From the NCBI GenBank assembly GCA_003645885.1, contig QNCW01000001.1, forward strand, positions 1 to 40,271: a DNA stretch of 40,271 nucleotides. Direction: 5' to 3'. Source of the stretch: Candidatus Latescibacterota bacterium (GTDB lineage Bacteria; Latescibacterota; 4484-107; B68-G9). Each line of letters begins with the position of its first letter. Position 1 is the first letter of the stretch. A program made the position numbers and the translations under genes. The notes beneath the pieces were generated by a model. It was not told the origin of the DNA and made no database searches. It saw nothing but the letters and a program-made list of their open reading frames with translations. Below are positions 14,389 through 35,039 of the stretch, piece after piece.

Positions 14389-15186
14389 ATGAAATACTCC
14401 TTCATGAGCTTTTCCTGCCCGGACCTCGACCTCGACGGGATGCTCTCCCTGGCCGAGAGGTTCGGGTACGACGGGATAGAACCGAGGATAGACAGCGGAC
14501 ACCGCCATGGAGTTGAGGTGGATTCGGACAGCGCCTTCAGGAGGGAGGCGAGGAAGAGGGCGGAGGAGAAAGGGGTAGCAATATGCTGCGTGGCCACGTC
14601 CTGTAGGATGGTCCTCGGGGAGACGGAGAGGACCCTGAAGGCGATAGACCTCGCAGGGGACGTGGGGGCCGGCCGCGTAAGGGTCTTCGGGGGGAGGATA
14701 CCGGAGGGGATGGGCCGCGACGAGGCGATAGAGGTGGTGGCCGAATCTTTGAGGTCCGTTGCCGACCACGCAGCCGAAAGGGGCGTCGTGGTCTGCCTGG
14801 AGACCCACGACGACTGGTGCGACCCTGAACATGTGGCCGAGGTCATGAGGAGGGCCGACCATCCCTCTGTCGGGGTCAACTGGGACGTCATGCATCCCGT
14901 GAGGAAGGGGTTCGCAACTATGGACTCGGCCTTCCGTGCGCTCGAGCCCTGGATAAGGCACCTACATGTCCACGACGGGTCCAGGAAGACAGGAAAGCTC
15001 GTCCCGATAGGCCATGGGGACTACGACCACAGGAGGGTGATAGAGCTTTTGCTTTCGATATCCTACGACGGATACATAAGCGGGGAGTGGATAAACTGGG
15101 AGGACCCTTACGAGGTCCACCTTCCCAGGGAGCTCGCCACGCTCAAGCGGTACGAGAGCGAGGTGAAGGTTCGCAACGTGCGATAA
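14389..15186 (+). CDS. Sugar phosphate isomerase/epimerase (xylose-isomerase-like TIM barrel)
   Basis: Features seen: FGYDGIEPR, VRVFGG, VCLETHDD, the H..HVHD metal-ligand pattern, and GHGDYD. AGGAGG SD lies 6 nt upstream of the ATG. Confidence 0.85.
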   Translation: MKYSFMSFSCPDLDLDGMLSLAERFGYDGIEPRIDSGHRHGVEVDSDSAFRREARKRAEEKGVAICCVATSCRMVLGETERTLKAIDLAGDVGAGRVRVFGGRIPEGMGRDEAIEVVAESLRSVADHAAERGVVVCLETHDDWCDPEHVAEVMRRADHPSVGVNWDVMHPVRKGFATMDSAFRALEPWIRHLHVHDGSRKTGKLVPIGHGDYDHRRVIELLLSISYDGYISGEWINWEDPYEVHLPRELATLKRYESEVKVRNVR

Positions 15187-15213: not shown

Positions 15214-16704
15214 TCAAAGTTCCCCCTCCGAGAAGACCTCGGCCGAGAAGGCCCAGATCTCCGCGTCCGGGCCCTTCCATGCGTCCCTCGGAAGTCCTGC
15301 CTTCAGACAGGTGTGCTCCAGGAACGTCTTGACGTCCCACCCGTATTCGGTGGCGACCTGGGGGAGGAGGAGCCCCTGCCTCCATCCCTTCCTTATTATG
15401 AGCCCGTCCCTTCCTATGACTATGTCCTTTATATCCTTGACCCTCCAGAGGGGGGTGAGGACGGATATCTCTATCTCCAACTCCGGGACCTCCTCGGGCC
15501 TGACAGGTGGGAAACGGGGGTCCTCCAGGGCGGCGGCCCTCGCCATGTCCCTCACAGCCTCCCATAGGGGTTTTATCCCCTCTATGTAACCTATACATCC
15601 CCTCAGCTCCCCGTGCTTCTTCAAGGTTACGAACGCCCCCCTCCTTTCCAGGAGCTTACCGGACTTCACTTGGAACTCGGGGGGAGGTTCGCCCCTCGTC
15701 ACCCTCTCGACCGTCCTGCGGGCTATGGTGAGCAGTGTCCTCTTGTCCTCCTCGCTCAGGCCGAGCTCCACGCCGACCCTCTTCTTCCCCTCCTCACCTC
15801 CGGCCCCGGACCTATACACCGCTATCGCTGAATACCCTACCACATATCCCCCCCTCTCCCCCACCACATCGTTAGAGTTCGTGTGGGTCAAAATCTTGAC
15901 CTTATCGGCCCCAAGTTCCCTCGCCGCCATAAGCATAGCAGCTATAGGACCTCCGCCGCAGGCCTGGTACTCCCCGCTCAGGAGCCCCTGGACGAACCCT
16001 TCCGGATCGAACCTGAGGATGGCCTTGAGCGTCTTCTCGTCCGTCCTGTTACACTCCTCGTAGCTGTACCCGTGGTAGAGGTCCGAGCTTGCCACTATGA
16101 GCACCTTCTTGCCCTTACATGCCCTCACGATGGCATCCGCAAGGTTCCTGCAGGCCCTGAGGTTCTGTTCCCCCATCACGACGGGCACGACCTTGAGGTC
16201 CGGTATGGCGACCTGAAGGAAGGGGAGTTCCACCTCCACGGAATGTTCGTACCTGTGGCCGGCATCCGAGAAAACTATATCGTCCTCGGGGGAGAGCATC
16301 TTCTTGGCTACATCCTCCGCTATGGGCACCACCCCTAAGGGCGTCTCGTACCCCCCCTCAGCCCAGATCGAGCTTCCCCTTAAAAATTCCCTGTGGCTCG
16401 GTCCTATGACCACCACAGCGTCGTAGCGTTTCCCCATGACCTCTTTGTACGCCACGGCGGCCGTGGGACCTGAATAGGGGTATCCTGCGTGGGGACAGAC
16501 GAGGCCTACTATCTCCCCTTCCACAGGGACCTTCCTTGCGTTCTCCAACATTTCCTCTACCATCCTCCTGAGGGTGGTGGGGTCGGCCGGATAGAACTGG
16601 CCAGCTACCGCCGGCTTGCGGACCTTGGCGGAGGCTTCGACGCTCACGCCGAGGAGCAACGCAGATAGGATGACGAAGCTAACCAACGAACACTCTATCC
16701 ACAT
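15214..16704 (-). CDS. Fusion protein: Memo-like (AmmeMemoRadiSam protein B) N-terminal domain plus AMMECR1 (protein A) C-terminal domain, with a predicted N-terminal signal peptide
   Basis: Memo motifs: AGQFYP, CPHAGYPYSGP, IGPSH, SSDLYHG, ACGGGPI. After a Gly/Glu/Lys linker (about nt 15760-15810) come AMMECR1 motifs GAFVTLKK.GELRGCIGY and EDPRFPPV. The N-terminus MWIECSLVSFVILSALLLGVSVEASA-KV looks like a Sec signal. AAGGAGG SD. Confidence 0.88.
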   Translation of the reverse strand: MWIECSLVSFVILSALLLGVSVEASAKVRKPAVAGQFYPADPTTLRRMVEEMLENARKVPVEGEIVGLVCPHAGYPYSGPTAAVAYKEVMGKRYDAVVVIGPSHREFLRGSSIWAEGGYETPLGVVPIAEDVAKKMLSPEDDIVFSDAGHRYEHSVEVELPFLQVAIPDLKVVPVVMGEQNLRACRNLADAIVRACKGKKVLIVASSDLYHGYSYEECNRTDEKTLKAILRFDPEGFVQGLLSGEYQACGGGPIAAMLMAARELGADKVKILTHTNSNDVVGERGGYVVGYSAIAVYRSGAGGEEGKKRVGVELGLSEEDKRTLLTIARRTVERVTRGEPPPEFQVKSGKLLERRGAFVTLKKHGELRGCIGYIEGIKPLWEAVRDMARAAALEDPRFPPVRPEEVPELEIEISVLTPLWRVKDIKDIVIGRDGLIIRKGWRQGLLLPQVATEYGWDVKTFLEHTCLKAGLPRDAWKGPDAEIWAFSAEVFSEGEL

Positions 16705-16725
16705 ATCGCCCTCCTTGTAAAGTTC

Positions 16726-17859
16726 CTACTTCCAAACTCCCGGTATCTCCCTGCCGCAGTGTACACAACGTCCGTCCCTCAGGCCCTCGAGCTCGGTCAT
16801 GTACCCTATCCTGTATATAAGCCTCCTTCCACAGGAAGGACAATATGTGCTCTCGGCTTTGTGCCCCGGGACGTTCCCTATGTACACGAAGTTGAGCCCT
16901 TCACCCTTGGCTATCTTCCACGCCCTCTCCAAAGTCTTAACGGGGGTGGGGGGTAGGTTACGAAGTTTGTACTGGGGGAAGAACCTCGTAAAGTGCAGGG
17001 GGACGTCCGGCCCGAGGTTCCCCATTATCCACCTGCACATATCTCTTATCTCGTCCGGGGAGTCGTTGAGCGTAGGGACCACGAGGTAGACCATCTCGAA
17101 CCATATGCCTATCTCCTTGAGGAGGACCAAGGTGTCCAGAACAGGTTTGAGGTGACCGTGGCAGACGTTCCTATAGAACCGCTCGGTGTAGGCCTTGAAA
17201 TCTATCTTCACCGCGTCCAGGACATCGCAGAGCTGCCTCATGGGCTCAGGGTTTATGTAACCGTTGGATATCATCACGCTGCGTACGCCCCTTTTGTGGC
17301 CCTCCACGGCGCAGTCGTACATGTACTCGTAGAAGATCACGGGCTCTGCATACGTGTAAGCTATGCTTTCGCATCCCGTGTAATAGGCGGCCCGGGCTAT
17401 CTCCACAGGGGAGGCTATGTAGTCGGTGCTCTGCTCCGGGCGGATCTGAGATATCTGCCAGTTCTGGCAGAACTCGCACTCCATGTTACATCCGACCGTG
17501 GATATGGAGAAGGCCTTGGTGCCGGGAAGGAAGTGGAACAGGGGCTTCTTCTCTATGGGGTCCACGTGCCATGTGCAGGGCTTGCCGTAGACGAGGGTGT
17601 AGTACGTGCCTCCCCTGTTCTCCCTGACGCCGCAGTATCCCCTCTCCTGGTCGTCTATGACGCACTCCCTCGGGCAGAGCACGCAGCGGATCTTCTTGTG
17701 GGGAAGCTTTTCGTAATGTCTGGCCTCGGTCAAGGACTCATCTGCGGGGTCGTCCTCCCTGGGGAAGCGGGGGAAGTACGAACGAACGAAACCGGGAAGG
17801 AGCGTGGCAGCGGACGCTGACAGTGTGGCCTTGACGAAGCTGCGCCTGGTCCAGAGCAT
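16726..17859 (-). CDS. AmmeMemoRadiSam-system radical SAM enzyme (PFL-activase-like) with a twin-arginine-type N-terminus
   Basis: Radical SAM CNMECEFCQN (CX3CX2C). The N-terminal Cys cluster is CVLCPRECV..GYCGVR. The C-terminal zinc-ribbon-like motif is CPSCG..CVHCG. The N-terminus MLWTRRSFVKATLSASAATLLPGFV matches T-R-R-x-F-x-K plus an h-region. I prefer ATG 17859 over the track's GTG 17868. Both keep the RR motif. Confidence 0.9.
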   Translation of the reverse strand: MLWTRRSFVKATLSASAATLLPGFVRSYFPRFPREDDPADESLTEARHYEKLPHKKIRCVLCPRECVIDDQERGYCGVRENRGGTYYTLVYGKPCTWHVDPIEKKPLFHFLPGTKAFSISTVGCNMECEFCQNWQISQIRPEQSTDYIASPVEIARAAYYTGCESIAYTYAEPVIFYEYMYDCAVEGHKRGVRSVMISNGYINPEPMRQLCDVLDAVKIDFKAYTERFYRNVCHGHLKPVLDTLVLLKEIGIWFEMVYLVVPTLNDSPDEIRDMCRWIMGNLGPDVPLHFTRFFPQYKLRNLPPTPVKTLERAWKIAKGEGLNFVYIGNVPGHKAESTYCPSCGRRLIYRIGYMTELEGLRDGRCVHCGREIPGVWK

Positions 17860-17871
17860 ATACCTCACCCC

Positions 17872-18279
17872 CTAAAACTTTATCTGCATCGCCCTAGGGG
17901 GACAAGCCCTTATGCACGCCTCACAAGCTATGCACTTGGAGCTGTCGAAGGAGACGAGCATGGTCTCCCTGTCCAAACTCAAAGCCCCAGTGGGACACAT
18001 CACAACGCACACACCACAATGGGTACACTTACCCTCGTCCCTATACACATCCTCTCCGAAGGCCTGTATGTGAACCCCCAAACCCTTGAGGTAGGATATG
18101 CCGGACTCGAGCGCCCGAGGCTCGCCGGAAAGTTCGAAGACCAATACTCCCTCCTCCTGTGGGCTTATCTGTGCCTTCAGGATGTTGAAGGCCAGGTCGT
18201 AGTCCTTGACCAGCCTGTAGATTATGGGCTTGTCCACAAGGTGGGCGGGAAACCGAAGCACGAGCTTTCGTGAGGTCAC
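17872..18279 (-). CDS. NIL-domain / 2x[4Fe-4S] ferredoxin-domain protein
   Basis: An N-terminal NIL-like domain (KPIIYRLVKDYDLAFNILKAQI..VLVFEL.G) is followed by CTHCGVCVVMCP and CIACEACIRACP. I place the start at GTG 18279 (GGAGG SD, GTGA overlap with the upstream stop) rather than the track's 18381, which overlaps the upstream gene by 106 nt. Confidence 0.85.
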   Translation of the reverse strand: MTSRKLVLRFPAHLVDKPIIYRLVKDYDLAFNILKAQISPQEEGVLVFELSGEPRALESGISYLKGLGVHIQAFGEDVYRDEGKCTHCGVCVVMCPTGALSLDRETMLVSFDSSKCIACEACIRACPPRAMQIKF

Positions 18280-19010
18280 CTTACCTCCTTCGCCCTTGTG
18301 AGCCTGAGGTCTCCCAGGACTCCTAACTTGTCCCCTAAGACCACCATCGCTCCCCTCACGCCATCTATCCTTAAGGCCCACTTTATGGCCTCGGATATTT
18401 CTTCCGGTTCCCGGACCCTGTTTCCTAATGCGGTGGCCACAGCGTCCGCCAAGGCTCCACCTTCGGCCACCACCACTGCAGCGTCGGCCCTGCCGAAGCT
18501 CAGGGAATGTCCCACGGTGCCCGAGGAGGTGCAGACCGAGCAGGGGGTCTCCTCTGGCTTTATTTCTAAGGCCAGCTTTCCCGAAAGAGGGGAACCTCCT
18601 GCAAGTATCCCTACCCTCCGTGGACGGGAAAGCGAGAGGAATATGTCCCCACCGTTCTCCACTATGACCTCGCCCGAAAGCTCACAGAGCCTCCTTCCCA
18701 CGTGTTCGGCTATCGCCCCGGCCACGGCCGCCATAGGCCCCACCTCGGCCTTCTTCCCAGCCTCCGCCATCTCCTTGACCAGCTGAGGGGCATCTTCGCC
18801 GACGGGATAAGGGGTCAGGGCCCGGAGGAAGCCCGGGTCCCTTCGTATGTACCTCGCCAACTGCCTCCTCGCCTCCCTCAGGGTCCTGAGGGCTTCCTCT
18901 GAGAGGTCTTCTGAGGCCCTTATCCAGAGGTCGCTCTCCCCCAGGACGACCCTGAAGGTGCGGAGACCGTCGTCCGGGACCTTCTCCCTGTAGCCCCTCG
19001 GCTCATACAT
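18276..19010 (-). CDS. UPF0280 / COG2122 ApbE-like family protein
   Basis: Features seen: GPMAAVAGAIAE, IVENGGDIFL, and S.GTVGHSLSFG.ADA, as I remember them from archaeal UPF0280 proteins. 8-nt overlap (ATGTATGA) with the DUF362 stop. Confidence 0.78.
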   Translation of the reverse strand: MYEPRGYREKVPDDGLRTFRVVLGESDLWIRASEDLSEEALRTLREARRQLARYIRRDPGFLRALTPYPVGEDAPQLVKEMAEAGKKAEVGPMAAVAGAIAEHVGRRLCELSGEVIVENGGDIFLSLSRPRRVGILAGGSPLSGKLALEIKPEETPCSVCTSSGTVGHSLSFGRADAAVVVAEGGALADAVATALGNRVREPEEISEAIKWALRIDGVRGAMVVLGDKLGVLGDLRLTRAKEVR

Positions 19011-19959
19011 ATATCACCTCTATGAGGCTCGGATCGGCGTTTCCCAAACGATGTTGAGGGTCGGAAGCTGTAAGGATGTAGTGCGGTTCCCTGCCCGCCT
19101 CCTTGAGGGAAGGAAGGCCCTTCTCCGCCCTCTTCTTCTCTATGATCTGCCAGCCCGTGTAATCCAAAGCTACCACGTCCCTCGAAAGTATCAAAGCCCC
19201 GAAGGGCCACGTCCATTGGGGCATGTAGGGAGGGCCGCCCTCGTACTGGGCGAGAAGACCGTCCAGGATGGTCAGGACTGTCTTCTGCCTTATGAAGGGT
19301 AGGGTGTTGAGGTCCGCTATGTACGGGTCCCCGGCGTTGTCGTGGTATTTGTTAGGGTTGTGGATGGCACCGAAGAAGTTCTTCATACCCAAGGTGACCC
19401 CACATATCCCGTGGTCCTTGAGCACGGGGAGGTTTATGACCTTGGTGCACCGCTCTATCAGGATCCTGCTGAACAGGCTCCCCACCGACATATGCTGTAT
19501 GAGGGCAGGATAATATCCCACCTCGTCGGTGCCGTAGCACTGGATGTCGTTCCCCCCCCTGTTCGTCCTGTACCCCGCCTTCCTGAGGTCGGCGTCCGCC
19601 CTGTCCCATATCACGATGTCCTTGGGCCTCACCCCGGCGGAGATGAGCCTCTTAGCGACGGCGCCCACAAGCTCCTTTCGGGTGGACATCCCCCTCCCTG
19701 CGAGGCAGTTTACCTTGAGCCCCACGACGTCCCCGGGTCCGACCAGCTCGGGCCACACGTCCTTCGCCTTCGCCCCGAAGAGCGCCTCGATCCCTCGGTC
19801 CAGGAGGACCCCGACCGCCTCCTCGTCCAACCTCCCCTTCCCGACGGATACCACCACGCGGGACCTCGTGCCTGCGAGGGCGGGAGGCAGCAACCCCGGA
19901 CCCAGAGCTGCCCCGACCCCTAAGGATATGGCCCGTTTCAGGAACTCCCTTCGGTCCAT
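19003..19959 (-). CDS. DUF362 domain protein with twin-arginine (Tat) signal
   Basis: The N-terminus MDRREFLKRAISLGVGAALGPGLLPPALA is a textbook Tat signal. DUF362-like core: GLKVNC, VINLPVLKDHGICGVTLGMKNFFGA, ILDGLLAQYEGGP, RDVVALD. I place the start at ATG 19959. The track's 20049 start would read through the promoter. Confidence 0.85.
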   Translation of the reverse strand: MDRREFLKRAISLGVGAALGPGLLPPALAGTRSRVVVSVGKGRLDEEAVGVLLDRGIEALFGAKAKDVWPELVGPGDVVGLKVNCLAGRGMSTRKELVGAVAKRLISAGVRPKDIVIWDRADADLRKAGYRTNRGGNDIQCYGTDEVGYYPALIQHMSVGSLFSRILIERCTKVINLPVLKDHGICGVTLGMKNFFGAIHNPNKYHDNAGDPYIADLNTLPFIRQKTVLTILDGLLAQYEGGPPYMPQWTWPFGALILSRDVVALDYTGWQIIEKKRAEKGLPSLKEAGREPHYILTASDPQHRLGNADPSLIEVIYV

Positions 19960-19971
19960 CGTTTCGAATGT

Positions 19972-20001
19972 AATATACAAGGAAAGGACAGGAATTGTCA
20001 A
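19972..20001 (-). promoter_or_regulatory. Near-consensus sigma70-type promoter of the DUF362-to-Memo/AMMECR1 operon
   Basis: On the minus strand: TTGACA (20001-19996), 18-nt spacer, TATATT (19977-19972). Only 12 nt separate the -10 from ATG 19959, and they contain no SD. The transcript would therefore be leaderless or nearly so. Confidence 0.5.
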
Positions 20002-20032: not shown

Positions 20033-20058
20033 GAGGCCGGGGCGTACACCCCGGCCTC
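20033..20058 (-). terminator. Probable intrinsic terminator ending the M16 / FG-GAP / protease / small-ORF transcript
   Basis: Perfect 10-bp GC stem GAGGCCGGGG / CCCCGGCCTC with a 6-nt loop, 6 nt after the small-ORF stop. On the minus strand it is followed by ACAUUUAUUAAGG (U-rich). Confidence 0.5.
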
Positions 20059-20064
20059 GAGGAG

Positions 20065-20238
20065 CTAAGGGTTGACCCTATTTCTCCACCACTCCCAGAG
20101 CTCTTCGTCGCTCCCGTAGGCCGCGAAACCCCTCACCACCTTCACGAGGATGCGGGTCAGCTCCGCCACGGTGGTCTCTAAGACTTTCACCCTCTCCTCC
20201 AACTCCCGGGCCGTACAAGGTTCCTTAACCTCCCCCAT
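20065..20238 (-). CDS. Tentative 57-aa helical protein (not in the ORF track)
   Basis: Minus-strand ATG 20238 is preceded by GGAAGGAGAG. The translation is MGEVKEPCTARELEERVKVLETTVAELTRILVKVVRGFAAYGSDEELWEWWRNRVNP, ending at TAG 20067-20065. Codon usage (AGG, GAG, GTG) matches neighbouring genes and a terminator hairpin follows. I recognise no homolog. Confidence 0.4.
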   Translation of the reverse strand: MGEVKEPCTARELEERVKVLETTVAELTRILVKVVRGFAAYGSDEELWEWWRNRVNP

Positions 20239-20318: not shown

Positions 20319-20771
20319 TCAAGGAATTTGTGATGACCTCAGCATCTCCTCCAGATCAGATATCGCCTCCTGCACCTTCGGGCTCAGTCCCGTCCCGAAC
20401 CTTATGTCCTCGGGCTGGACACCTAAGATTACGGTCCTTATGCCCTCCCTTTCCAAAAAATCCACAAGGGGCAGGATGGAGGGCCCATGCGTCGAGAACC
20501 CGAGGCCCTCCACCTCCTCCCTTTCTATCTTCCTTATCTCGCCGGGCCTTCCCCCGAAGTCCACGGCGTCCACGATCACGACGACGTTCGGTCCGAGGTC
20601 CAAGATCTCCCCTAAAAGGTTTTCGGGCGCGCTTCCCCCTTCCAGGACGGGGAGCTCGTCCTTCAACCTCCTGGCTAAGACGACGCCGAGGCCGTCGTCC
20701 CTCCTAAGCTCGTTCCCTATCCCCAATATCACGGCCCTCTCGCCGGGCCTCAAACCTATTCCCCCTTCCAT
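20319..20771 (-). CDS. Hydrogenase maturation endopeptidase family protein (HybD/HycI-like)
   Basis: Motifs seen: ILGIGNELRRDDGLG, VVIVDAVDFG, GFSTHGPS. ATG 20771 overlaps the upstream gene's end by 16 nt. GTG 20732 (giving M-ILGIGN) is an alternative start. The track's 20963 start lies deep inside the upstream gene. Confidence 0.8.
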   Translation of the reverse strand: MEGGIGLRPGERAVILGIGNELRRDDGLGVVLARRLKDELPVLEGGSAPENLLGEILDLGPNVVVIVDAVDFGGRPGEIRKIEREEVEGLGFSTHGPSILPLVDFLEREGIRTVILGVQPEDIRFGTGLSPKVQEAISDLEEMLRSSQIP

Positions 20772-23700
20772 ACTATGAGGCGTGTGTTGTAGCGCTCTAA
20801 GTAGTCCCTGTGTTCCGGGTCGTCGGGGTAGGATTCCCCCTCGGGATAAGGGTAGGTGCTCATCCCATGGAAGGGGAGGGGGTCCACCGTCCAGGTGTAG
20901 GCGGACCAGAGGTCGGTGCTCTTTCCGAAGCCGTTCGCGTAGAATACGAAGCTCCTTTCCCATCCCTCGGGGACCGGGAGGACCCCGAACTTCAGGGCCA
21001 CCTCGTCGCCGTGTCTCATTATCACGAACCTGTCGTCCACGTCCTTCAGGAGCTCCTTCACATCCCCGTATCTGGTGTAGTACCCTGTTATGTCCCTCCA
21101 GTTATACCTCGGAGTTAAGAGGGCCCTCCGGTAGTCGTAAACCTTCGGCTTCCTTCCGTCCGGGGAATAGTCGTACGGGTACCCGAGCCACCTCAGCACT
21201 GCCTCCTCGAGGGGGAGTTCCCGAACTCGGTGGGGGGGTTCGGAGGAGGTGGTGTCCACAAGAATTTGGTCCCAATAGATTTGATAGTTCGTCGTTATGC
21301 GGAGGCGGCAGTCGTGGGGAGGAAGCTTTCCCGTAAGGTCAAATACCATGGGCTTCGGCTCCCCCGCAGGGGCTCCCATGTCCTCCGTCACGACCTTCCA
21401 TCCTCCCCTTCCGTCGGGGACCTCGAGCCTCGGAGGCATGGGACTTATTCCGGCCTGCCACGCCGCCAGGTTAGCTGTGGAGGACATGTACTCCAGCCAT
21501 CCGTAGGCCACAAGGAGCATCCTTCCAGCGCCCGAGAGGTCCCCGAAGTCCAGGGTCAGGGTGTGAACCTTTGCGTAGCCCTGGAACCTTTCCAGGGGTA
21601 CATCCGGGTAGAGCCTGTCCCTGTGCATCACGAGGTCGGTGACGTCCCTCCCCCTGTAGTCCACTGCGTTCCTGGGATGTACAGGGTTGCGTACGAAGTA
21701 AAGCCGGAACTCGGGGTACGGAGGAACGCTCACGAACCTCTCGTTGGGATAGACCTCCCATCCCGGAGGATGGTCCACGGCCAGAAGCTTCACCTGGTCC
21801 AAGAGTATGACCTCCTCAAGCTGGCTTGCTACCCTCAGGTCGTAGATTCCTCCGATGGGCCTCAGAAGTTTCCTGGGGATCGGGACATATTCGTCCGGAT
21901 CCGGTAGGGCGTACACTCCAGGTCTTATCAGGTATCCCGAGTCACCTGCGCCGTTGAAGTCCGTAACATAGTGTATTTCCCTCCCGTCGTTTACGTAGAG
22001 TATGGGACAGGACGTACCCTTCCTATCTATCTCCACGAGGTTCGTATCCCTCCGGGCTGGAACCTCCATTTCGGTCTGCCTCACGCCGTCCGGCCAGAGG
22101 GCCCTGAGAAGGTCCACCTTCGAGTTCCTACCGAGCCCGAAGCTCAGCACCCCTCCGGGGCTCCAGGAGTCCCCCCTCGCCTCCTTCTTCTGCCAGAGCG
22201 AGCCGGTCTTGACCTCGAGCTTAGTGCCTATGCCCTGGCGGTTGCATCCCCTGCCCACGAGGCGCACCACGAGCCAAGAGTTCTCGTTCCCCCCTTCGTT
22301 CCTGAAGAGCCTCACCCCTCCTCCGTAGGAGACGAGCGCCACGTCCTGGTCCCCGTCCAGGTCGTAGTCCCCTACGAGGGCCTTCTTAACGCCGGGAACG
22401 GAGACCTTCGGGAAGGCCTCCTCGTCCACCTCGAAGTTCTTCCCCATCCTGTTCCTGAGGAGCAGGGGCCTTCCGTCACGGGATACGGCCAAGATGTCCA
22501 TGTCGCCGTCGTTGTCGTAGTCCAAGGACGATACAACTTCGGCGGAGAAGCCTTCCGGCCAGGGGAGGGAGACGGGGATGTACCTTCCGTCCCTCAGGTA
22601 GCGGTATAGGACAGGAGGTTCCCCCGTACTACCTACGACCAGGTCCATGAACCTGTCCCTGTCGTAGTCGGAGATCGCCGCAGAGAAGCTCCTTCCTGGG
22701 GAGGCGATGCCGGCCTCCTCGGCCATGTCGGTGAACGTCCCGTCCCTGTTGTTGCTGAAGAGCTGGTCCGGTTCCCCGTCGTTCAGGACGAAGAAGTCTA
22801 CATCCCTGTCGTTGTCGTAATCCGTGAAGACGACCCCCCTGCTACGGCGTGCCCCTCCGATCCCTGCCTCCTGGGTCACGTCGGTGAATGTCCCGTTGAA
22901 GTTGTTTCTGTACAATGTGTTCCTGTCTCCGTAGTTGACCACGAATATGTCCAAGTCCCCGTCGTGGTCGACGTCGGCAAATGCGCAGGCCACGCTCCAG
23001 CGTGGGTCCCCCACCCCTGCCTCCTGGGTCATGTTGGTGAAAGTCCCGTCCCCTTCGTTGCGGTAGAGCAAGTTGGGTCCGAAGTTGGCCACATAGAGGT
23101 CCAGGTCACCGTCGTTGTCGTAGTCACCCCACACGGCGTCCATCCCCAGCCCTTCGTCCCCCACTCCTGCCTTCGGGGTGACGTCCACGAACCTACCTTC
23201 CTCGTTCCTGAGCAGGACGTTGGCACCACATCGGACGATGTACATGTCCAGGTCACCGTCGCCGTCGTAGTCGCCCCAGCATGCGTTCCCTCCGAGCGGC
23301 TCGACTACATGCTCCCTTAGCCATTCCTCCGAGGCATCCTTCGGGACCTCCTCCGGGACCCTGCCGGGAAGCGGGAAGGAGGGCACTCCGGCCTCTTCGG
23401 TCGCATCCACGAACTTCACGGGGTACCTCTCGTCCGGGGGAGGCTTCAGGAGCGATGGGTCGGGGAGGGCCTCGGCGTACTTGCCCTGCTCTAAATACCT
23501 CACCCCAGCGGTGGGCTTGAGCCCGAGGGCCCTGAGCCTCCTGAACTTCTTCATGTGCCTTTCGGCCTCCTCGTACCTTCCGAGCCTCCTGAGTTCAGTT
23601 GCGAGGTTGTAATGGGCGGATATGTTGTTGGGGTCGAGCCTCAGGACCTGTTCGTAGGCCTTCACCGCTGCCTCGTGGTCCTTGAGCTTGGAGAGCACTA

Positions 23701-24082
23701 TCCCCAAGTTGTGCCACACGTAAGGGTCCTCGGGGTCCTTCTTGAGCACCGTTTCGAACTCCATCTTGGCTTCTGGATACTGGCCCCTGATCTTATATAT
23801 AAGACCCAAGTTATAGTGGGCGTAGGGGTTGTCGGGGTCCAGGGAGAGGGCCTCCTTGAGTTCCCTCACGGCGTCATCGTACCTGCTCATCTGCACGTAC
23901 GCTATGCCCAGGTTGATGTGACCTATGACGTAGTTCGGATGTAGCTTCAGCACCTCCTCGAACTCCCGGGCGGCTGCTGCGAAGTTGTTCTGCTCCATGT
24001 ATACCACCCCGAGGTCGTTGTGGCGGGTGACCTCCGCCATGTCCCCTCCGAACAGGACCGAGGCGATGACGAGGTACAACAT
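20756..24082 (-). CDS. Large TPR / FG-GAP (VCBS) repeat / ASPIC-UnbV protein (CRTAC1-like), 1108 aa
   Basis: N-terminal TPR repeats (..LHPNYVIGHINLGIAY.., ..DPDNPYAHYNLGLIY..). Multiple FG-GAP/VCBS repeats follow (GDYDGDGDLDMYIV, GDYDNDGDLDLYVANFGPNLLYRNEGDGTFTN, DVDHDGDLDIFVVN, ...). An ASPIC/UnbV-like segment follows (NSWLVVRLVGRGCNRQGIGTKLEV). The remaining ~450 aa form a C-terminal region. I place the start at ATG 24082 (AAGGAGGAG SD), not 24178. Confidence 0.88.
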   Translation of the reverse strand: MLYLVIASVLFGGDMAEVTRHNDLGVVYMEQNNFAAAAREFEEVLKLHPNYVIGHINLGIAYVQMSRYDDAVRELKEALSLDPDNPYAHYNLGLIYKIRGQYPEAKMEFETVLKKDPEDPYVWHNLGIVLSKLKDHEAAVKAYEQVLRLDPNNISAHYNLATELRRLGRYEEAERHMKKFRRLRALGLKPTAGVRYLEQGKYAEALPDPSLLKPPPDERYPVKFVDATEEAGVPSFPLPGRVPEEVPKDASEEWLREHVVEPLGGNACWGDYDGDGDLDMYIVRCGANVLLRNEEGRFVDVTPKAGVGDEGLGMDAVWGDYDNDGDLDLYVANFGPNLLYRNEGDGTFTNMTQEAGVGDPRWSVACAFADVDHDGDLDIFVVNYGDRNTLYRNNFNGTFTDVTQEAGIGGARRSRGVVFTDYDNDRDVDFFVLNDGEPDQLFSNNRDGTFTDMAEEAGIASPGRSFSAAISDYDRDRFMDLVVGSTGEPPVLYRYLRDGRYIPVSLPWPEGFSAEVVSSLDYDNDGDMDILAVSRDGRPLLLRNRMGKNFEVDEEAFPKVSVPGVKKALVGDYDLDGDQDVALVSYGGGVRLFRNEGGNENSWLVVRLVGRGCNRQGIGTKLEVKTGSLWQKKEARGDSWSPGGVLSFGLGRNSKVDLLRALWPDGVRQTEMEVPARRDTNLVEIDRKGTSCPILYVNDGREIHYVTDFNGAGDSGYLIRPGVYALPDPDEYVPIPRKLLRPIGGIYDLRVASQLEEVILLDQVKLLAVDHPPGWEVYPNERFVSVPPYPEFRLYFVRNPVHPRNAVDYRGRDVTDLVMHRDRLYPDVPLERFQGYAKVHTLTLDFGDLSGAGRMLLVAYGWLEYMSSTANLAAWQAGISPMPPRLEVPDGRGGWKVVTEDMGAPAGEPKPMVFDLTGKLPPHDCRLRITTNYQIYWDQILVDTTSSEPPHRVRELPLEEAVLRWLGYPYDYSPDGRKPKVYDYRRALLTPRYNWRDITGYYTRYGDVKELLKDVDDRFVIMRHGDEVALKFGVLPVPEGWERSFVFYANGFGKSTDLWSAYTWTVDPLPFHGMSTYPYPEGESYPDDPEHRDYLERYNTRLIVWKGE

Positions 24083-24092
24083 ATCTCCTCCT

Positions 24093-25379
24093 TCACTCCG
24101 GCACGACAGCTCCCAGGACGTAGGGCCCCGAGAGGTACCTCCGGGCGGCCCTGAGCACATCCTCGGCGGTGACCGCATCTATAAGTTCGGGATATATCTC
24201 CACGAACCTGTACCCTAACCCCGTAAGCTCGTACTTGGCCAGGAGGGACGCCTGGTCCATGTTCCTCTCCTGGGACATCAGGAAGGTCCCTTTAATGTAG
24301 GTCTTGGCAGCCTCGAGCTCTTCCTCCGGGACCTGCTCCTCGACCATCCTTTCCACCTCTCCAAGCACAACTTCCTTGGCCTCCTCGAAACGCTCCGGCC
24401 TCGTGCCCAGGTATATCAGAAATAGGCTCGGCCCCTCCATAGCTATGTAGCTCGAGCCTATCTGATAGGCGAGCCCCCTCTCGTCCCTGACGGATACGAA
24501 GAGCCTGGAGTCCATCGCTCCACCTAAGATGGCGTCCAGAACCTCCAGGGCTGCGAAATCCCGGTCCGAAACCGGCGGGGCTGGGTAACCAAAGGCGGCC
24601 CAAACTGCTCGGCTTTCCCTCTGCTCAAAGGTTTCGCTGGATTCCTCCCGGCCGGGAACCTGTCCGGGCGCAGGTTCGGGGAGCGGCCCCTCGGGCAGGT
24701 CCGCCAGGTTCTCCTCCACCTCCTTCAAAAACTCCCCCTCCGGGAAGTTCCCCACCGCAGCCAGGACCATGTTGTTCGGGACGTAGAACTTCCTGTACCA
24801 CCCCACGACCTCTTCCCTTGAGAACTTGGACACCGTCTCCGGATAACCCAATACGGGCTTGTGGTGAGGGTGCTGGCCGTAGAAGGCCTCCCTCATAAGG
24901 TCAACGGCCCTGGTAAGGAGTCGGTCCCTTCTTGCCTTTATCCTTTTGAGGGCCATCTGCTTTTCCTGTTCAACTTCGTCCTCCGGGAACTTGGGATGGA
25001 GCACGACGTCGAAGAGCAACTCCAAGGCCTCCTTCCACCGGTCCTTCGTGGCTAAAAGCGAGATGTATCCGTACTCCCGGAACGCCCCCGAGGAAAGCTT
25101 GGCGCCCAAGGACTCTATCTCCTCCGCAAGCTCCTCCGCAGTCCTGGATTCCGTTCCCTTCAGGAGAAGTCGTTGCGTTATATCGGAGAGTCCCGCCTCC
25201 TCGTCCCTCTCGTAGAGGGGCCCCATCCTCAGGAGCACCTCCACCGCAACTATGTCGTTGGCCCCTGATGGCTTGGTCAACACCACGAGGCCGTTTTCGA
25301 ATGTAACCTTTCTGACGGCAGGCTTTTCGGCCTTAGTTACGGCAAAGAGCAGCCCGAAGGCCAGCAGAAATTTGAGCAT
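24093..25379 (-). CDS. M16 (pitrilysin/insulinase) family protein, predicted secreted and non-catalytic
   Basis: Signal-like N-terminus MLKFLLAFGLLFAVTKA. The fold is M16 (FENGL.V, ..LLKGT.SR....L...IE.LGA). Where active M16 enzymes have HxxEH the sequence reads SDITQRL, so His, Glu and His are all replaced. GGAGGGGG SD. Confidence 0.83.
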   Translation of the reverse strand: MLKFLLAFGLLFAVTKAEKPAVRKVTFENGLVVLTKPSGANDIVAVEVLLRMGPLYERDEEAGLSDITQRLLLKGTESRTAEELAEEIESLGAKLSSGAFREYGYISLLATKDRWKEALELLFDVVLHPKFPEDEVEQEKQMALKRIKARRDRLLTRAVDLMREAFYGQHPHHKPVLGYPETVSKFSREEVVGWYRKFYVPNNMVLAAVGNFPEGEFLKEVEENLADLPEGPLPEPAPGQVPGREESSETFEQRESRAVWAAFGYPAPPVSDRDFAALEVLDAILGGAMDSRLFVSVRDERGLAYQIGSSYIAMEGPSLFLIYLGTRPERFEEAKEVVLGEVERMVEEQVPEEELEAAKTYIKGTFLMSQERNMDQASLLAKYELTGLGYRFVEIYPELIDAVTAEDVLRAARRYLSGPYVLGAVVPE

Positions 25380-31415: not shown

Positions 31416-34400
31416 ATGCTCGTAGGGAGACCTTGGAAGGTGGCCCTGGTGGTGGGGGCCGCCGTGGGATGTTATTTAGGTGTGAGAGCGTTACAGGGTT
31501 TAACCCTGCGCTACCTTCAAGGATTGGCCTCCTCGAAGCTCGGAAGGCGGGTTTCGGTGGGTTCCCTCCACATAGGTCTGGGGACGTGGCACCTCAGTGA
31601 TGTGAGGATATCCGACCAGGTACAGATCCCCCTCCTCAGGTTGAAGTACCGCCTCCTTCCTTGGAAGGTCACGGAGATATCCCTTTACGGTCCGATCCTG
31701 AACCCCAAGGGTGGACCTCCAGTACTCAGGCTGCATCCCCCACCCGTCCCCCTGAACTTCCGGCGGGGAAGGCTTCCCCCGTGGGCGGAGGACCTATCCG
31801 GTCGGATCTACGCAGATGGGGACACCGTAAGGCTGGAGATGGAAGGTTCTTTGGGGGATGGGGCCTTTTCGCTTAAAGGGCACATGGATGGGAAGTCAGG
31901 GACGGGCAGGATGGAGCTTACTGCAAGGGAGGTAGATTTAAGGTCCCTCCCGAAGGAAATCTCATCCTGGGCCCCCTCCGGCCTCCTCTCCCTTAGGGCC
32001 GAGCTTTTCTTGAAGGATTTTTCGCCCTGCAGGGCGGCCTTCCGTATGCAGGGAGAGGACTTAACCCTTAAGGGCCTGAGCCCTCTTTCAAGGGTGTGGC
32101 TGGAGGGCGAGTGGGACGGAAGGTGCATGTTGATACGAAGGTTGAAGGGCATAAGCCAAGGGAGGTACTTCGAGGGGGAAGGGAGGATAACGGACGAGGG
32201 CCCGGACCTACATATCCTCATCCCCCAGTTCGAGCTGGCCTCGGCCACCGATGGCTTTCTGAATGGAAAGGGGGACATAAGGTTAAAGATAAAGGGGACT
32301 TGGGAAGGGATGAACATCACCGGACGAGGGAAGGTACCCATCGCCCTTCTGGGAAGGGTGCGGATGGAGGACGTCTCCTTCTCCTTCCAGCAGGAGCCCG
32401 GCCTCTTCAGGTTGAGCAGGGCATCAGGCTATATAGGAGGTGGAAGGGTTGAGGGATGGGGAAGGTTCCCCCGGAAGGGTCCTTCGAGGTCCAGCTGGAG
32501 GATCGAGGGGGTGGAGGGGGAGGCCCTGTGGGGGTTCCTTCTCCCGAAGGTGAGGTTGCCCAAGGGGAAGATATGGGGGACCTTGTACTGCAAGGGGGAA
32601 GAATGGAGGTTCGTCCTGGACCGGGCCGAGCTCGTATGGAGGGGGAGGGTCCTCCCCACGCTCAGGGGCGTCCTGAGGAGGGAAGGGGGGCAGGTGAAGT
32701 TTCGTATATCCGGCCCTGGGTTGGAGGCCGCAGGGCAGGCGACGAAAGGAGGCTTTAAGGTCTCCCTAAGGGTGGAGGGAAGCCATCACCTGGCCGGGAG
32801 GGACCTTCCCCTGACCGGCGAACTTACGGCCTCCAGTACCGACGACGGTCCTATCGTGGGACACTTACACATAAAGGGCCCCTTCTGGGAGGCGGCCGGG
32901 CCCTACGAACTACTTCCCCGAGGAGAGGAGCTCGTCCTCCTGCTCAAAAGGGGTTCCGTTTACATGTCCGGCAGAGCTATTCCCTATCGAGGTGCGGTCA
33001 GGGTGGGCCCCGGGGGGGTGGTTTGGGATTTGGAGGTCGCCGGTGGGAAGCTCTCCGGAAGGAAGGAGGAAGGCGAACTCCTCGCCTCTTTGGACGACTT
33101 CTCCTTGGCTTGGTTGGGCCTTGAGGGGAGTCTGTCCGGAAGGGTGAGGGCTTACGGGGGCTCGGGTGGAGGGAGCTTAACTTTGTCCAACTTCGGGCTT
33201 AAGGGAAGGGGAGGGATGGAAGGGAGCTTCCGGTTCGGGTGGGACGAAGAAGGTCCGTGGCTTGAGGGGACGGTTCAGGACCGATGGGGAACTTTGGGCG
33301 AGGTCTCCTACAGAGGGGGGGAATTCCGGGCCGTGGGGCTGGACGTAGAGATCTCCAGGATAGCCCAGCTCCTTCCTCTGCAAAGGAGGCTTAGGGGGAT
33401 GTTCTCCTACGATGTGGAGGTTTCGGGAAGGGACTACAAGGCCCACGTAGAGGCGGTGGGCGTCCGGTTCGGGGAGGTGGGGATAGGCTACGTGGGAGGG
33501 GAGGTCAGGGGAAAGTTGGACGGGAACGCCATGCTCAGGCTGAAGCTCTCCGGCGAAAGGATGAAAGGTAAGGCGGAGGGGACCTTAAAGGATGGAACCT
33601 TGGACCTCAAGATGAGCTTGGAGGGGGACCTCCTCTCCTCCCTCCTCGTGTTGGGAGGTGGCGTGAAGGCCTCCGGGTACGGCAAGTTGGAGCTTGCCCT
33701 TGGAGGACCCTACGACTCCCCGAAGTTGAAGGAGTTCAACCTCTCTTTAAAAGATGGGAAGATCTCCTGGGGTCCCACCGAAGTCCGTAACATCGTCGTA
33801 GAGGCCCGCATGGAGCCGGACGGCTTCCTGAAGGTGGGTAAGTTCGAAGCGAAGCTCGACGGCGGCAGGTTGGAGGTCTCAAACAGGAGGGGGGAGAGGC
33901 CCCTTAAGCTGGAGGTGCTGGGGGGCGTGAACCTCGGCGTCCTACAGTTGAACACCGGCCCATCGGGGATAGAACTCCACATCCCGGGCATCATGTCCCC
34001 CGGGAGGACGGGGACCTTCGTGTTGTACGGAAGGAGGCCGGACGAACCCTTCCTGATAGAGGGTCCTTCCTCCTTGCCGAGGATGGTCGGGACGGTCCTC
34101 CTGCGCAACGCCGAGATAACCTATCCCCCTACGGGAGGGAAGAGGCCCTCGATCTGGGATCGGACCGATTGGGACCTCACCCTCGTGGCCGGGGAGGAGG
34201 TATGGTACCTTAGGGACGCCATCTTCGGAGCGGGGGCCAGGCTCAGGATAGAGGAAGGGGACAGGTTAACCCTGCACGGTTGCCCTGCGAGGGGAGACTT
34301 CTGGGTGGAGGGCAGCTTAAGGGCTACCTCAGGCACTATCTTCTATTTGGACAAAGAGTTCTGGGTGGAGGAAGCCGGAATAGAGTTCAACACCAAATAT

Positions 34401-35039
34401 GGGGTGGAGCCCATAGTGTACGGGAGCGCTGAAACGAAGGTCAGGGACGAGAACACGGGAAGGGAACTTCCCGTATACCTCCGGCTTTACGCCTGGGACC
34501 CTAAGACCGGAGCGAAGCTGGAGCGGGCTCCCCTGAACGAATGTTTCTTGGATGTGGAAGTCCCCCCTTCCTGGGACATCTCTAAGGAAGAGGTGCTCAG
34601 GCTCTTAGGATATCCCTTGGAGGAGTACCCCAGGAAGGTGGCCGAAGCGCTGGGGATAGGCGTAGAGGACAGGGTCTTCCGCTCCCTCCTCTCGCCCATA
34701 GAGTACCGCCTCAGGAGGGCCATAGGCCTGGACGTGTTACAGATTCAGCCCTCCCTTATGAGGAACCTCCTCGCCCCTTCGGGCCCTTCCCTCACTTCCC
34801 TGCTTTACGGGACTAAATTTACCTTGGGCGAACGCATAGGTACGAGGGGTCTCCTGTTCTACAGGGGGGAGCTGGAACCTCCTAAGCCCCCCTACGGGGA
34901 GCTATGGAGCGTGCAGCACCTCTTAGGATTGGAGTACAGGCTGTGGACGGACACATGGCTGAAGCTCGAATACTCCTACGATCCCCTCTCCGGGCAAAGG
35001 GACAGGCGAGTGGGACTTCGGCACAGGATATGGTGGTGA
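31416..35039 (+). CDS. TamB-like translocation/assembly module protein (AsmA-like, DUF490-type C-terminus)
   Basis: 1207 aa. An N-terminal membrane anchor (WKVALVVGAAVGCYLGV) is followed by a long repetitive beta-rich body. The C-terminus is ..GTKFTLGERIG.R.LLFYRG...LGLEYRLW.D.WLKLEYSY. The gene sits immediately upstream of bamA. Confidence 0.78.
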   Translation: MLVGRPWKVALVVGAAVGCYLGVRALQGLTLRYLQGLASSKLGRRVSVGSLHIGLGTWHLSDVRISDQVQIPLLRLKYRLLPWKVTEISLYGPILNPKGGPPVLRLHPPPVPLNFRRGRLPPWAEDLSGRIYADGDTVRLEMEGSLGDGAFSLKGHMDGKSGTGRMELTAREVDLRSLPKEISSWAPSGLLSLRAELFLKDFSPCRAAFRMQGEDLTLKGLSPLSRVWLEGEWDGRCMLIRRLKGISQGRYFEGEGRITDEGPDLHILIPQFELASATDGFLNGKGDIRLKIKGTWEGMNITGRGKVPIALLGRVRMEDVSFSFQQEPGLFRLSRASGYIGGGRVEGWGRFPRKGPSRSSWRIEGVEGEALWGFLLPKVRLPKGKIWGTLYCKGEEWRFVLDRAELVWRGRVLPTLRGVLRREGGQVKFRISGPGLEAAGQATKGGFKVSLRVEGSHHLAGRDLPLTGELTASSTDDGPIVGHLHIKGPFWEAAGPYELLPRGEELVLLLKRGSVYMSGRAIPYRGAVRVGPGGVVWDLEVAGGKLSGRKEEGELLASLDDFSLAWLGLEGSLSGRVRAYGGSGGGSLTLSNFGLKGRGGMEGSFRFGWDEEGPWLEGTVQDRWGTLGEVSYRGGEFRAVGLDVEISRIAQLLPLQRRLRGMFSYDVEVSGRDYKAHVEAVGVRFGEVGIGYVGGEVRGKLDGNAMLRLKLSGERMKGKAEGTLKDGTLDLKMSLEGDLLSSLLVLGGGVKASGYGKLELALGGPYDSPKLKEFNLSLKDGKISWGPTEVRNIVVEARMEPDGFLKVGKFEAKLDGGRLEVSNRRGERPLKLEVLGGVNLGVLQLNTGPSGIELHIPGIMSPGRTGTFVLYGRRPDEPFLIEGPSSLPRMVGTVLLRNAEITYPPTGGKRPSIWDRTDWDLTLVAGEEVWYLRDAIFGAGARLRIEEGDRLTLHGCPARGDFWVEGSLRATSGTIFYLDKEFWVEEAGIEFNTKYGVEPIVYGSAETKVRDENTGRELPVYLRLYAWDPKTGAKLERAPLNECFLDVEVPPSWDISKEEVLRLLGYPLEEYPRKVAEALGIGVEDRVFRSLLSPIEYRLRRAIGLDVLQIQPSLMRNLLAPSGPSLTSLLYGTKFTLGERIGTRGLLFYRGELEPPKPPYGELWSVQHLLGLEYRLWTDTWLKLEYSYDPLSGQRDRRVGLRHRIWW

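Follow-up and report, generated by a model that had tools for sequence, protein, structure and literature searches.

Conservation of AMMECR1 and Memo extends from archaea to humans, in whom AMMECR1 maps to a region deleted in disease; the function of the two proteins and the substrate of their radical S-adenosylmethionine (SAM) partner form a long-standing question, for which the locus described here gives concrete experimental handles. The locus is part of a 40,271-bp contig from a metagenome-assembled genome (MAG) of an uncultured Candidatus Latescibacterota bacterium; the whole contig is called the window below, and its proteins are deposited under DRP94_ locus tags. From open reading frames (ORFs) and their translations, a five-gene operon was identified on the minus strand (19959-15214, behind a single promoter) that joins the AMMECR1, Memo and radical SAM set, known as AmmeMemoRadiSam, to a DUF362 protein, a UPF0280/COG2122 protein and a NIL-ferredoxin. 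The question raised by this arrangement is which of the added proteins belong to the system and in which compartment the system would act. A first-pass annotation of this DNA had read the locus as the trio welded to three further partners. Because the three extra genes proved not to be equivalent, that reading was only partly right: it stands for DUF362, which is conserved with the trio across several phyla, and fails for UPF0280 and NIL-ferredoxin, whose association with the trio is confined to a single clade.

The locus is one coupled unit. In 5' to 3' gene order, all on the minus strand, the DUF362 gene (19959..19003; 318 aa, with its ATG at 19959) overlaps by 8 nt the UPF0280/COG2122 gene (19010..18276; 244 aa; ApbE superfamily), which itself overlaps by 4 nt the NIL-ferredoxin gene (18279..17872; 135 aa, GTG start); the radical SAM gene (17859..16726; 377 aa) and the Memo-AMMECR1 fusion gene (16704..15214; 496 aa) follow, so that the successive junctions measure -8, -4, +12 and +21 nt. 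A longer DUF362 ORF beginning with a GTG at 20049 exists and is unnecessary given the ATG at 19959. The radical SAM and fusion genes, which lie 21 nt apart on the same strand, are likewise encoded together in most of the 160 related loci surveyed below.

The presence of the AmmeMemoRadiSam trio, as first annotated, was upheld by the family models, all of which were exceeded by a wide margin. The radical SAM enzyme scored 401.4 bits against TIGR04337 (cut-off, 220), the Memo part of the fusion 278.1 bits against TIGR04336 over residues 29-296 (cut-off, 26; Pfam Memo, 206 bits), and the AMMECR1 part 190.4 bits against TIGR04335 over residues 323-491 (cut-off, 99). Their operon neighbors also passed the curated thresholds of PF04015, PF09383 and NF003323, with the scores given for each protein below. 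The radical SAM enzyme has the cluster motif CNMECEFC (CX3CX2C), whose cysteines C124, C128 and C131 are invariant in alignment A1, together with an N-terminal and a C-terminal 4-Cys site, and its nearest solved structure is the pyruvate formate-lyase (PFL) activating enzyme PFL-AE (3c8f; E 5e-11). The motifs of the fusion are intact as well. In the Memo part these are CPHAGY and GPSH, which we take to be metal-site residues; in the AMMECR1 part they are RGCIG and DPRF, corresponding to the RGChG and DxR-aromatic motifs defined for that family (PMC2034487). In three KSB1-type loci (L003:12057-13171, L094:5095-6197 and L104:9576-10711), Memo is followed by two tandem AMMECR1-like domains instead of one, 38-44% and 50-55% identical to the window domain.

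Export-type N termini had been noticed on three of the five products, and closer inspection agreed. The DUF362 protein begins with a twin-arginine translocation (Tat) signal peptide (19870..19959, minus strand; MDRREFLKRAISLGVGAALGPGLLPPALA/GT) that scored 21.0 bits against TIGR01409, for which the cut-off is 16.7, and alignment A2 shows almost no variation at its R3 and R4. The radical SAM enzyme, too, begins with a Tat signal peptide (17779..17859, minus strand; MLWTRRSFVKATLSASAATLLPGFVRS), scoring 18.5 bits against the same 16.7-bit cut-off and 20.4 bits against PF10518, while the fusion has a Sec-type signal peptide (16627..16704, minus strand; MWIECSLVSFVILSALLLGVSVEASA/KV) that is hydrophobic and ends in ASA. 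The sequence RR-x-F-L-K followed by a hydrophobic stretch was present in 107 of 116 close radical SAM homologs and in 97 of 120 DUF362 homologs, and almost all bacterial Memo-AMMECR1 homologs carry an N-terminal extension of the Sec/hydrophobic or lipoprotein type. Archaeal radical SAM enzymes of the family do not have the Tat extension; the archaeal loci of that homolog set gave no Memo hit and hence no archaeal Memo comparison. The public NCBI models (RKY60576.1 and relatives) place the start of the radical SAM enzyme 42 codons after our ATG and give a product of 335 aa, so the Tat signal is missing from the deposited proteins and is easily overlooked; in the JGI, ENA and Logan models the protein is complete at 377 aa. 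No signal peptide was found at the N terminus of either UPF0280 or NIL-ferredoxin, and the operon products therefore appear destined for two compartments, at variance with the single six-domain envelope module that had been suggested.

The conservation of this arrangement was surveyed from two sides. On the radical SAM side, one genome per species was searched with the radical SAM alignment, yielding 80 loci (43-59% identity) from many phyla and some archaea, in which neighbors were located by tblastn with the window proteins; on the DUF362 side, a metagenome scan with the DUF362 alignment yielded another 80 loci (49-60% identity), 76 of them with enough downstream sequence to be evaluated. 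These two sets are the 160 other loci referred to throughout. The window DUF362 protein matched PF04015 with 72 bits (cut-off, 24). Ten of the 80 species-level loci, from Acidobacteriota, KSB1, Eisenbacteria and delta-proteobacterial MAGs, have DUF362 immediately before the radical SAM gene, and a radical SAM gene lies no more than 400 nt downstream of DUF362 in 71 of the 76 evaluable metagenome loci, usually with Memo-AMMECR1 next. About 315 representatives clustered at 50% identity matched the window DUF362 at E <= 1e-30, and NCBIfam holds no specific model for this subfamily, its best match giving 36 bits against a cut-off of 500. The adjacency of DUF362 and radical SAM genes in both surveys marks DUF362 as a fourth core gene. 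Altogether, these neighborhoods and N termini indicate that Tat-DUF362 is a near-obligate fourth partner in a predicted exported bacterial branch of the system, and that the putatively exported module is conserved in Acidobacteriota, KSB1, Eisenbacteria, delta-proteobacterial MAGs and Latescibacterota. For UPF0280 and NIL-ferredoxin, in contrast, the same surveys limited co-localization with the trio to the window's own clade.

Departures from the usual gene set and domain layout were also seen. In the metagenome loci L110 and L111, DUF362 is immediately succeeded by Memo-AMMECR1, the radical SAM gene being absent from its usual place between the two, and in L097 and L169 this DUF362 subfamily occurs without any trio gene within 7-8 kb. 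The top-scoring DUF362 representatives, P0418 (1384 aa) and P0419 (1071 aa), are long proteins that contain three or four tandem copies of the domain.

As profile searches with DUF362 against PDB sequences gave nothing meaningful, only the fold search was informative. An AlphaFold2 model of the protein was obtained with a mean predicted local distance difference test score (pLDDT) of 81 and a predicted template modeling score (pTM) of 0.83, the loop of residues 186-210 being of low confidence. In Foldseek, LarA-type structures were the only significant matches (9q3j, 9eia, 6d6z and 4nar; probability, 0.99-1.0), but with template modeling (TM) scores of 0.3-0.4 and a high root mean square deviation. 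The matches agree with the shared Pfam clan, CL0471, to which DUF362 and the LarA family belong (PMC11770544), and the model thus suggests that the DUF362 protein has a LarA-like fold. The residues K181, H183, K193, K204 and H206 are invariant in the subfamily, which has no cysteine cluster motif.

Apart from these genes, the commonest neighbor of the module encodes a 700-800-aa polytopic membrane protein with a spermidine-synthase-like domain (PF01564), found in about 45 of the 80 genome loci and in at least 35 of the 80 metagenome DUF362 loci, where it lies just beyond the module (e.g., L008:12682-15015; listed cases are L002, L007, L008, L051 and others, and L100-L172). Modules of the DsbD-like, FMN_bind or Fer4_5 type sometimes stand beside this protein or form part of it; some Planctomycetota have a fusion with both FMN_bind and Fer4_5, and a DsbD-like membrane protein is its neighbor in L041. 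No homolog of the PF01564-domain protein was found in the window, and this companion of the module in other phyla was dropped as a candidate component of the window system.

UPF0280 and NIL-ferredoxin had been taken to be of unknown function, which does not hold: genetic evidence shows that both, together with DUF39, are needed to make homocysteine and to assimilate sulfide (PMC5764234). Price et al. (2018) reported that Desulfovibrio needs each of DUF39, NIL/ferredoxin and COG2122 to make homocysteine, and work on MA1821, MA1822 and MA1715 in methanogens, summarized in the same paper, assigned them a role in sulfide assimilation and proposed persulfide formation (PMC5764234). The window UPF0280 scored 297 bits against NF003323 (cut-off, 271), matched PDB 2o34 at E 5e-42 and, in alignment A5, of which it is itself a member, has the conserved residue at each of the 59 invariant columns. 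NIL-ferredoxin scored 58.8 bits against PF09383 (cut-off, 24), has two Fer4 domains in addition, and aligns gap-free with the NIL/Fdx proteins from DUF39 clusters at 55-56% identity. Among the UPF0280 relatives from outside the clade (57-59% identity), three of the four examined sit in DUF39-NIL/Fdx-COG2122 clusters, which often also contain cysK, cysE, Thi4, NifU or cysteine desulfurase genes. No DUF39/HcyBio gene (PF01837) was found among the ORFs scanned in the 40-kb window, and none was called in the L081-L090 contigs; the window order, COG2122 and then NIL/Fdx, is the inverse of the canonical DUF39-NIL/Fdx-COG2122 order. From these similarities, the best-supported view is that UPF0280 and NIL-ferredoxin are a pair recruited from the sulfide-assimilation pathway.

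The pair is an operon member exclusively in the Latescibacterota clade to which the window belongs. All five genes are present in L081-L084, whose radical SAM enzyme is 85% identical to that of the window and whose genomic surroundings differ, and in L089-L090 (83% identical), where a sensor hybrid kinase gene stands between radical SAM and Memo. In L085-L088 (94% identical), which are four independent assemblies, the order is DUF362-UPF0280-radical SAM-fusion, with 98 nt in place of NIL-ferredoxin. The five-gene order has thus been kept in three sublineages (the window, L081-L084 and L089-L090), in different surroundings and with synonymous divergence (dS) above 1.3. Ratios of nonsynonymous to synonymous divergence (dN/dS) of 0.02-0.20 across all five genes denote purifying selection, the values being highest for UPF0280 (0.09-0.20) and lowest for NIL-ferredoxin (0.02-0.05). 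The 1054-aa gene between radical SAM and Memo in L089 was considered as an extra component and rejected; it encodes a PAS sensor hybrid histidine kinase, and its position is not conserved.

To account for these data, we propose a reading in two layers, to which we give an even chance. In the first layer, the Tat-DUF362 protein, the PFL-activase-like Tat radical SAM enzyme and the Sec-type Memo-AMMECR1 fusion would form an exported module. In the second, the clade-specific COG2122/NIL-ferredoxin pair, inserted between the genes of the two Tat substrates, would remain in the cytoplasm and supply low-potential electrons and/or activated sulfur for loading or reducing the cofactors of the two Tat proteins, DUF362 and the radical SAM enzyme; both would then leave in folded form through Tat and, together with Memo-AMMECR1, act on a substrate outside the cytoplasm. 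The Tat pathway transports its substrates already folded and with cofactors in place, and because the genes of the pair lie between those of two such substrates with overlapping codons, we infer that the pair services the two proteins before export. LarA-type enzymes carry a sulfur-containing nickel-pincer cofactor, and the fold matches of the DUF362 model are accordingly in keeping with this reading; the recurrent membrane-protein neighbor suggests a membrane context, as would befit an exported module.

Several observations weigh against this two-layer reading. The pair was found in none of the 160 other loci (UPF0280 was absent from the 80 species-level loci, and the NIL domain appeared in one of them, but 4 kb away beside a two-component system; the 80 metagenome loci had neither), which implies that most organisms run the module without a dedicated copy. 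In the 94% relatives, L085:7709-7806 (also in L086-L088) is a relic of NIL-ferredoxin, equivalent to window positions 17872-18279; short stretches from the start, the middle and the 3' end of the gene are kept, joined by several internal deletions, while the other four genes are intact. Unrelated genes are inserted within the module elsewhere, including an AAA ATPase gene (L105:6839-8128), a HepT-like domain fused to an alpha/beta hydrolase (L102:6972-8456), RraA with two enolase-superfamily genes (L167:7755-11661) and the PAS sensor hybrid histidine kinase gene mentioned above (L089:4417-7581); since such insertions differ among lineages, the module junctions evidently tolerate them. DUF362 gave no Lar_N match even at E <= 10, so that the resemblance to LarA is at the level of the fold, and no larB, larC or larE was seen among the window ORFs scanned. 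Radical SAM chemistry requires SAM and a low-potential electron donor, both of which are cytoplasmic, and once exported, such an enzyme would have no obvious source of either. Finally, export and the single transcript are predictions from sequence, and contacts between the proteins are postulated.

The first three of these points also bear on the main rival, according to which the pair is a passenger: UPF0280 and NIL-ferredoxin would be the lineage's homocysteine/sulfide-assimilation genes, with DUF39 encoded elsewhere, that landed in the operon by rearrangement, and their co-transcription with the module would be functionally meaningless. We regard this explanation as possible, if unlikely, and the absence of the pair from the 160 loci together with the loss of NIL-ferredoxin in the nearest relative, which retains the rest of the operon, keeps it well alive. 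It would also explain why both proteins keep all family-invariant features and 55-62% identity to the canonical copies of DUF39 clusters, and the role of the pair in methionine synthesis is genetically established (PMC5764234). A passenger origin is harder to square with the lack of a DUF39/HcyBio gene in the window and the relatives' contigs, with the inverted gene order, with start and stop codons that overlap those of neighboring genes (-8 and -4 nt), and with the persistence of the arrangement through saturated synonymous divergence in different genomic surroundings. In addition, the two metagenomes that contain the 94% relative also hold a separate UPF0280 gene, 62% identical (L091/L092), which hints at a second, housekeeping copy. 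Its contig starts in a short tandem repeat and so gives no information on a preceding NIL-ferredoxin gene; by tblastx it shows no other similarity to the clade contigs, and the gene is therefore not assignable to the same organism.

The rival least in keeping with the data, and the most improbable, is an entirely cytoplasmic system, in which the N termini would be unused for export or be mere membrane tethers, NIL-ferredoxin would be the radical SAM reductant with its NIL domain sensing methionine/SAM, and COG2122 would donate sulfur to a sulfur-inserting radical reaction: the cytoplasmic location of SAM and reductant, the ferredoxin gene immediately before the radical SAM gene, the NCBI gene models that start after the putative signal and the archaeal family members without the N-terminal extension are all in its favor, but it conflicts with the conserved signals predicted on three independent proteins, in that the DUF362 and radical SAM N termini both exceed the curated Tat cut-off, about 90% of close homologs across phyla have RR-x-F-L-K with the hydrophobic stretch, Memo-AMMECR1 has Sec or lipoprotein signals of its own in the majority of bacterial loci, polytopic membrane proteins, DsbD-like proteins and FMN_bind fusions make up the most recurrent neighbors, and NIL-ferredoxin is missing from nearly all module loci.

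The two-layer reading has a bolder extension, which we consider improbable as it stands. The bacterial AmmeMemoRadiSam system would be an extracytoplasmic radical SAM machine in which the Tat-exported radical SAM enzyme, the LarA-like DUF362 protein and the Sec-exported Memo-AMMECR1 fusion jointly modify an envelope component, and the COG2122/NIL-ferredoxin relay captured by this Latescibacterota clade would point to a sulfur-containing cofactor or to sulfur insertion as the chemistry behind AMMECR1 and Memo. If this were true, it would be, to our knowledge, the first established case of a radical SAM enzyme acting extracytoplasmically. The exported branch in any case raises the question of how radical SAM chemistry could run extracytoplasmically; the DUF362 partner, with its putative LarA-like fold, provides a second testable constraint on the system, and recruitment of COG2122/NIL-ferredoxin in one clade suggests sulfur or low-potential electrons as an input.

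The signals for transcription and translation agree with a single unit. ORF coordinates and a promoter scan bore out the first-pass description of five co-directional genes with the junctions listed above behind one near-consensus promoter. This promoter is of the sigma-70 type (20001..19972, minus strand), reading TTGACA-18 nt-TATATT and matching the consensus at 11 of 12 positions, and promoter-like sites numbered 6 compared to 1.7 +/- 1.3 in shuffled sequences. Both hexamers are invariant in three relatives (L081, L085 and L089, whose coding sequences are 80-94% identical), where the surrounding noncoding sequence has diverged. The -10 hexamer ends 12 nt before the DUF362 start codon; the three relatives retain a leader of about 15-20 nt with a Shine-Dalgarno sequence that has been lost in the window (compared region, 19945-20001), and with this deletion the message would be nearly leaderless. 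Each of genes 2-5 is preceded by a strong Shine-Dalgarno sequence. The terminator hairpin reported upstream of the operon is present as a G+C-rich structure (20058..20033, minus strand) with an 11-bp stem containing 9 G-C pairs, although terminator-like sites as a class occur at chance number in the region (6 found versus 5.7 expected); this hairpin is predicted to close the upstream transcription unit and thereby insulate the operon. The terminator scan gave no internal terminator above chance in the operon, and the window yielded neither a tRNA nor, at the gathering thresholds of Rfam, a riboswitch or other RNA element. A 57-aa ORF upstream (20238..20065, minus strand) was considered as a peptide substrate of the radical SAM enzyme and rejected, as it is unconserved in any relative or in any of 173 loci; it has a promoter-like site of its own (20322-20294) and no Pfam match.

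At its 3' end the operon meets, as first annotated, a convergent gene, which encodes a xylose-isomerase-like TIM-barrel protein (AP_endonuc_2; 14389..15186, plus strand; PF01261, 126 bits). This gene ends at 15186, forms the 3' boundary of the operon and is outside the system; L085 and L086 share this neighbor, which L081 and L089 do not. On the upstream side of the operon are genes for a HycI-type hydrogenase maturation protease (20319-20963, minus strand) and for a 1140-aa TPR/FG-GAP/ASPIC protein (20756-24178, minus strand). The longest ORFs of these two overlap by about 200 nt, so the protease probably starts further downstream than its first start codon. The window is otherwise a diderm housekeeping region that also encodes bamA, lpxD, lptA, purA, HU, aspartokinase and hisF/hisH, and a 1207-aa ORF directly upstream of bamA (31416-35039, plus strand) has no Pfam match at E <= 1e-3.

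The combined architecture had been put forward as undescribed, and the literature gave no reason to revise this. Searches with the system name, AMMECR1/radical SAM, DUF362 and radical SAM/twin-arginine as terms returned neither this architecture nor an exported radical SAM enzyme. The exported branch, its DUF362 partner and the union of the module with a sulfur-transfer pair thus appear to be undescribed, whereas the trio is already known bioinformatically and the COG2122/NIL-ferredoxin pair is already known from another pathway.

How the locus compares with known systems can now be considered, beginning with the glycyl-radical activases. The PFL activating enzyme is the nearest characterized relative of the radical SAM enzyme, by both structure (3c8f) and a TIGR02493 hit, but the window protein scores far below the cut-offs of these families (TIGR02493, 55 versus 232 bits; TIGR02494, 33 versus 174 bits) and differs in having the additional N- and C-terminal 4-Cys sites and a Tat signal; the window contains no glycyl-radical enzyme gene. 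DUF362 belongs to the same clan, CL0471, as the LarA/DUF2088 nickel-pincer-nucleotide racemases, and its model has LarA-type structures as its only significant fold matches, but it is shorter (318 versus about 420 aa), carries a Tat signal, lacks a Lar_N match and superimposes with the low TM scores already given (0.3-0.4).

The DUF39 (HcyBio, PF01837) pathway is exemplified by MA1821/MA1822/MA1715 of Methanosarcina and DvMF_1464/DvMF_0262/DvMF_0044 of Desulfovibrio (PMC5764234). Compared to these, the window COG2122 and NIL-2x[4Fe-4S] proteins are full-length, 55-62% identical to the canonical copies and retain all invariant residues, but they have no DUF39 gene in their vicinity, follow each other in inverted order and have as neighbors DUF362 and radical SAM genes instead of cysK, cysE, Thi4, NifU or cysteine desulfurase.

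Operon-encoded chaperones of the DmsD, TorD and NapD type mature Tat-exported redox enzymes, such as the dimethyl sulfoxide (DMSO) and trimethylamine N-oxide (TMAO) reductases, in the cytoplasm. The window operon would follow a similar logic, with putative cofactor-bearing Tat proteins co-transcribed with signal-less proteins that may act before export; its accessory families, COG2122 and NIL-ferredoxin, are however unrelated to those chaperones and absent from most module loci.

The closest comparison is with the AmmeMemoRadiSam trio itself (TIGR04335/04336/04337), which the window set resembles in scores, adjacency and intact motifs, the Memo-AMMECR1 fusion being already in the literature. 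To this the window adds a Tat signal on the radical SAM enzyme, a Sec signal on the fusion, a Tat-DUF362 protein and two inserted genes for cytoplasmic proteins. Balaji and Aravind (2007) predicted a role in RNA-base modification for the system (PMC2034487). The export signals on every core protein in a large bacterial branch argue against a purely RNA-directed role there, and the predicted exported location is hard to reconcile with RNA modification, at least for this bacterial variant.

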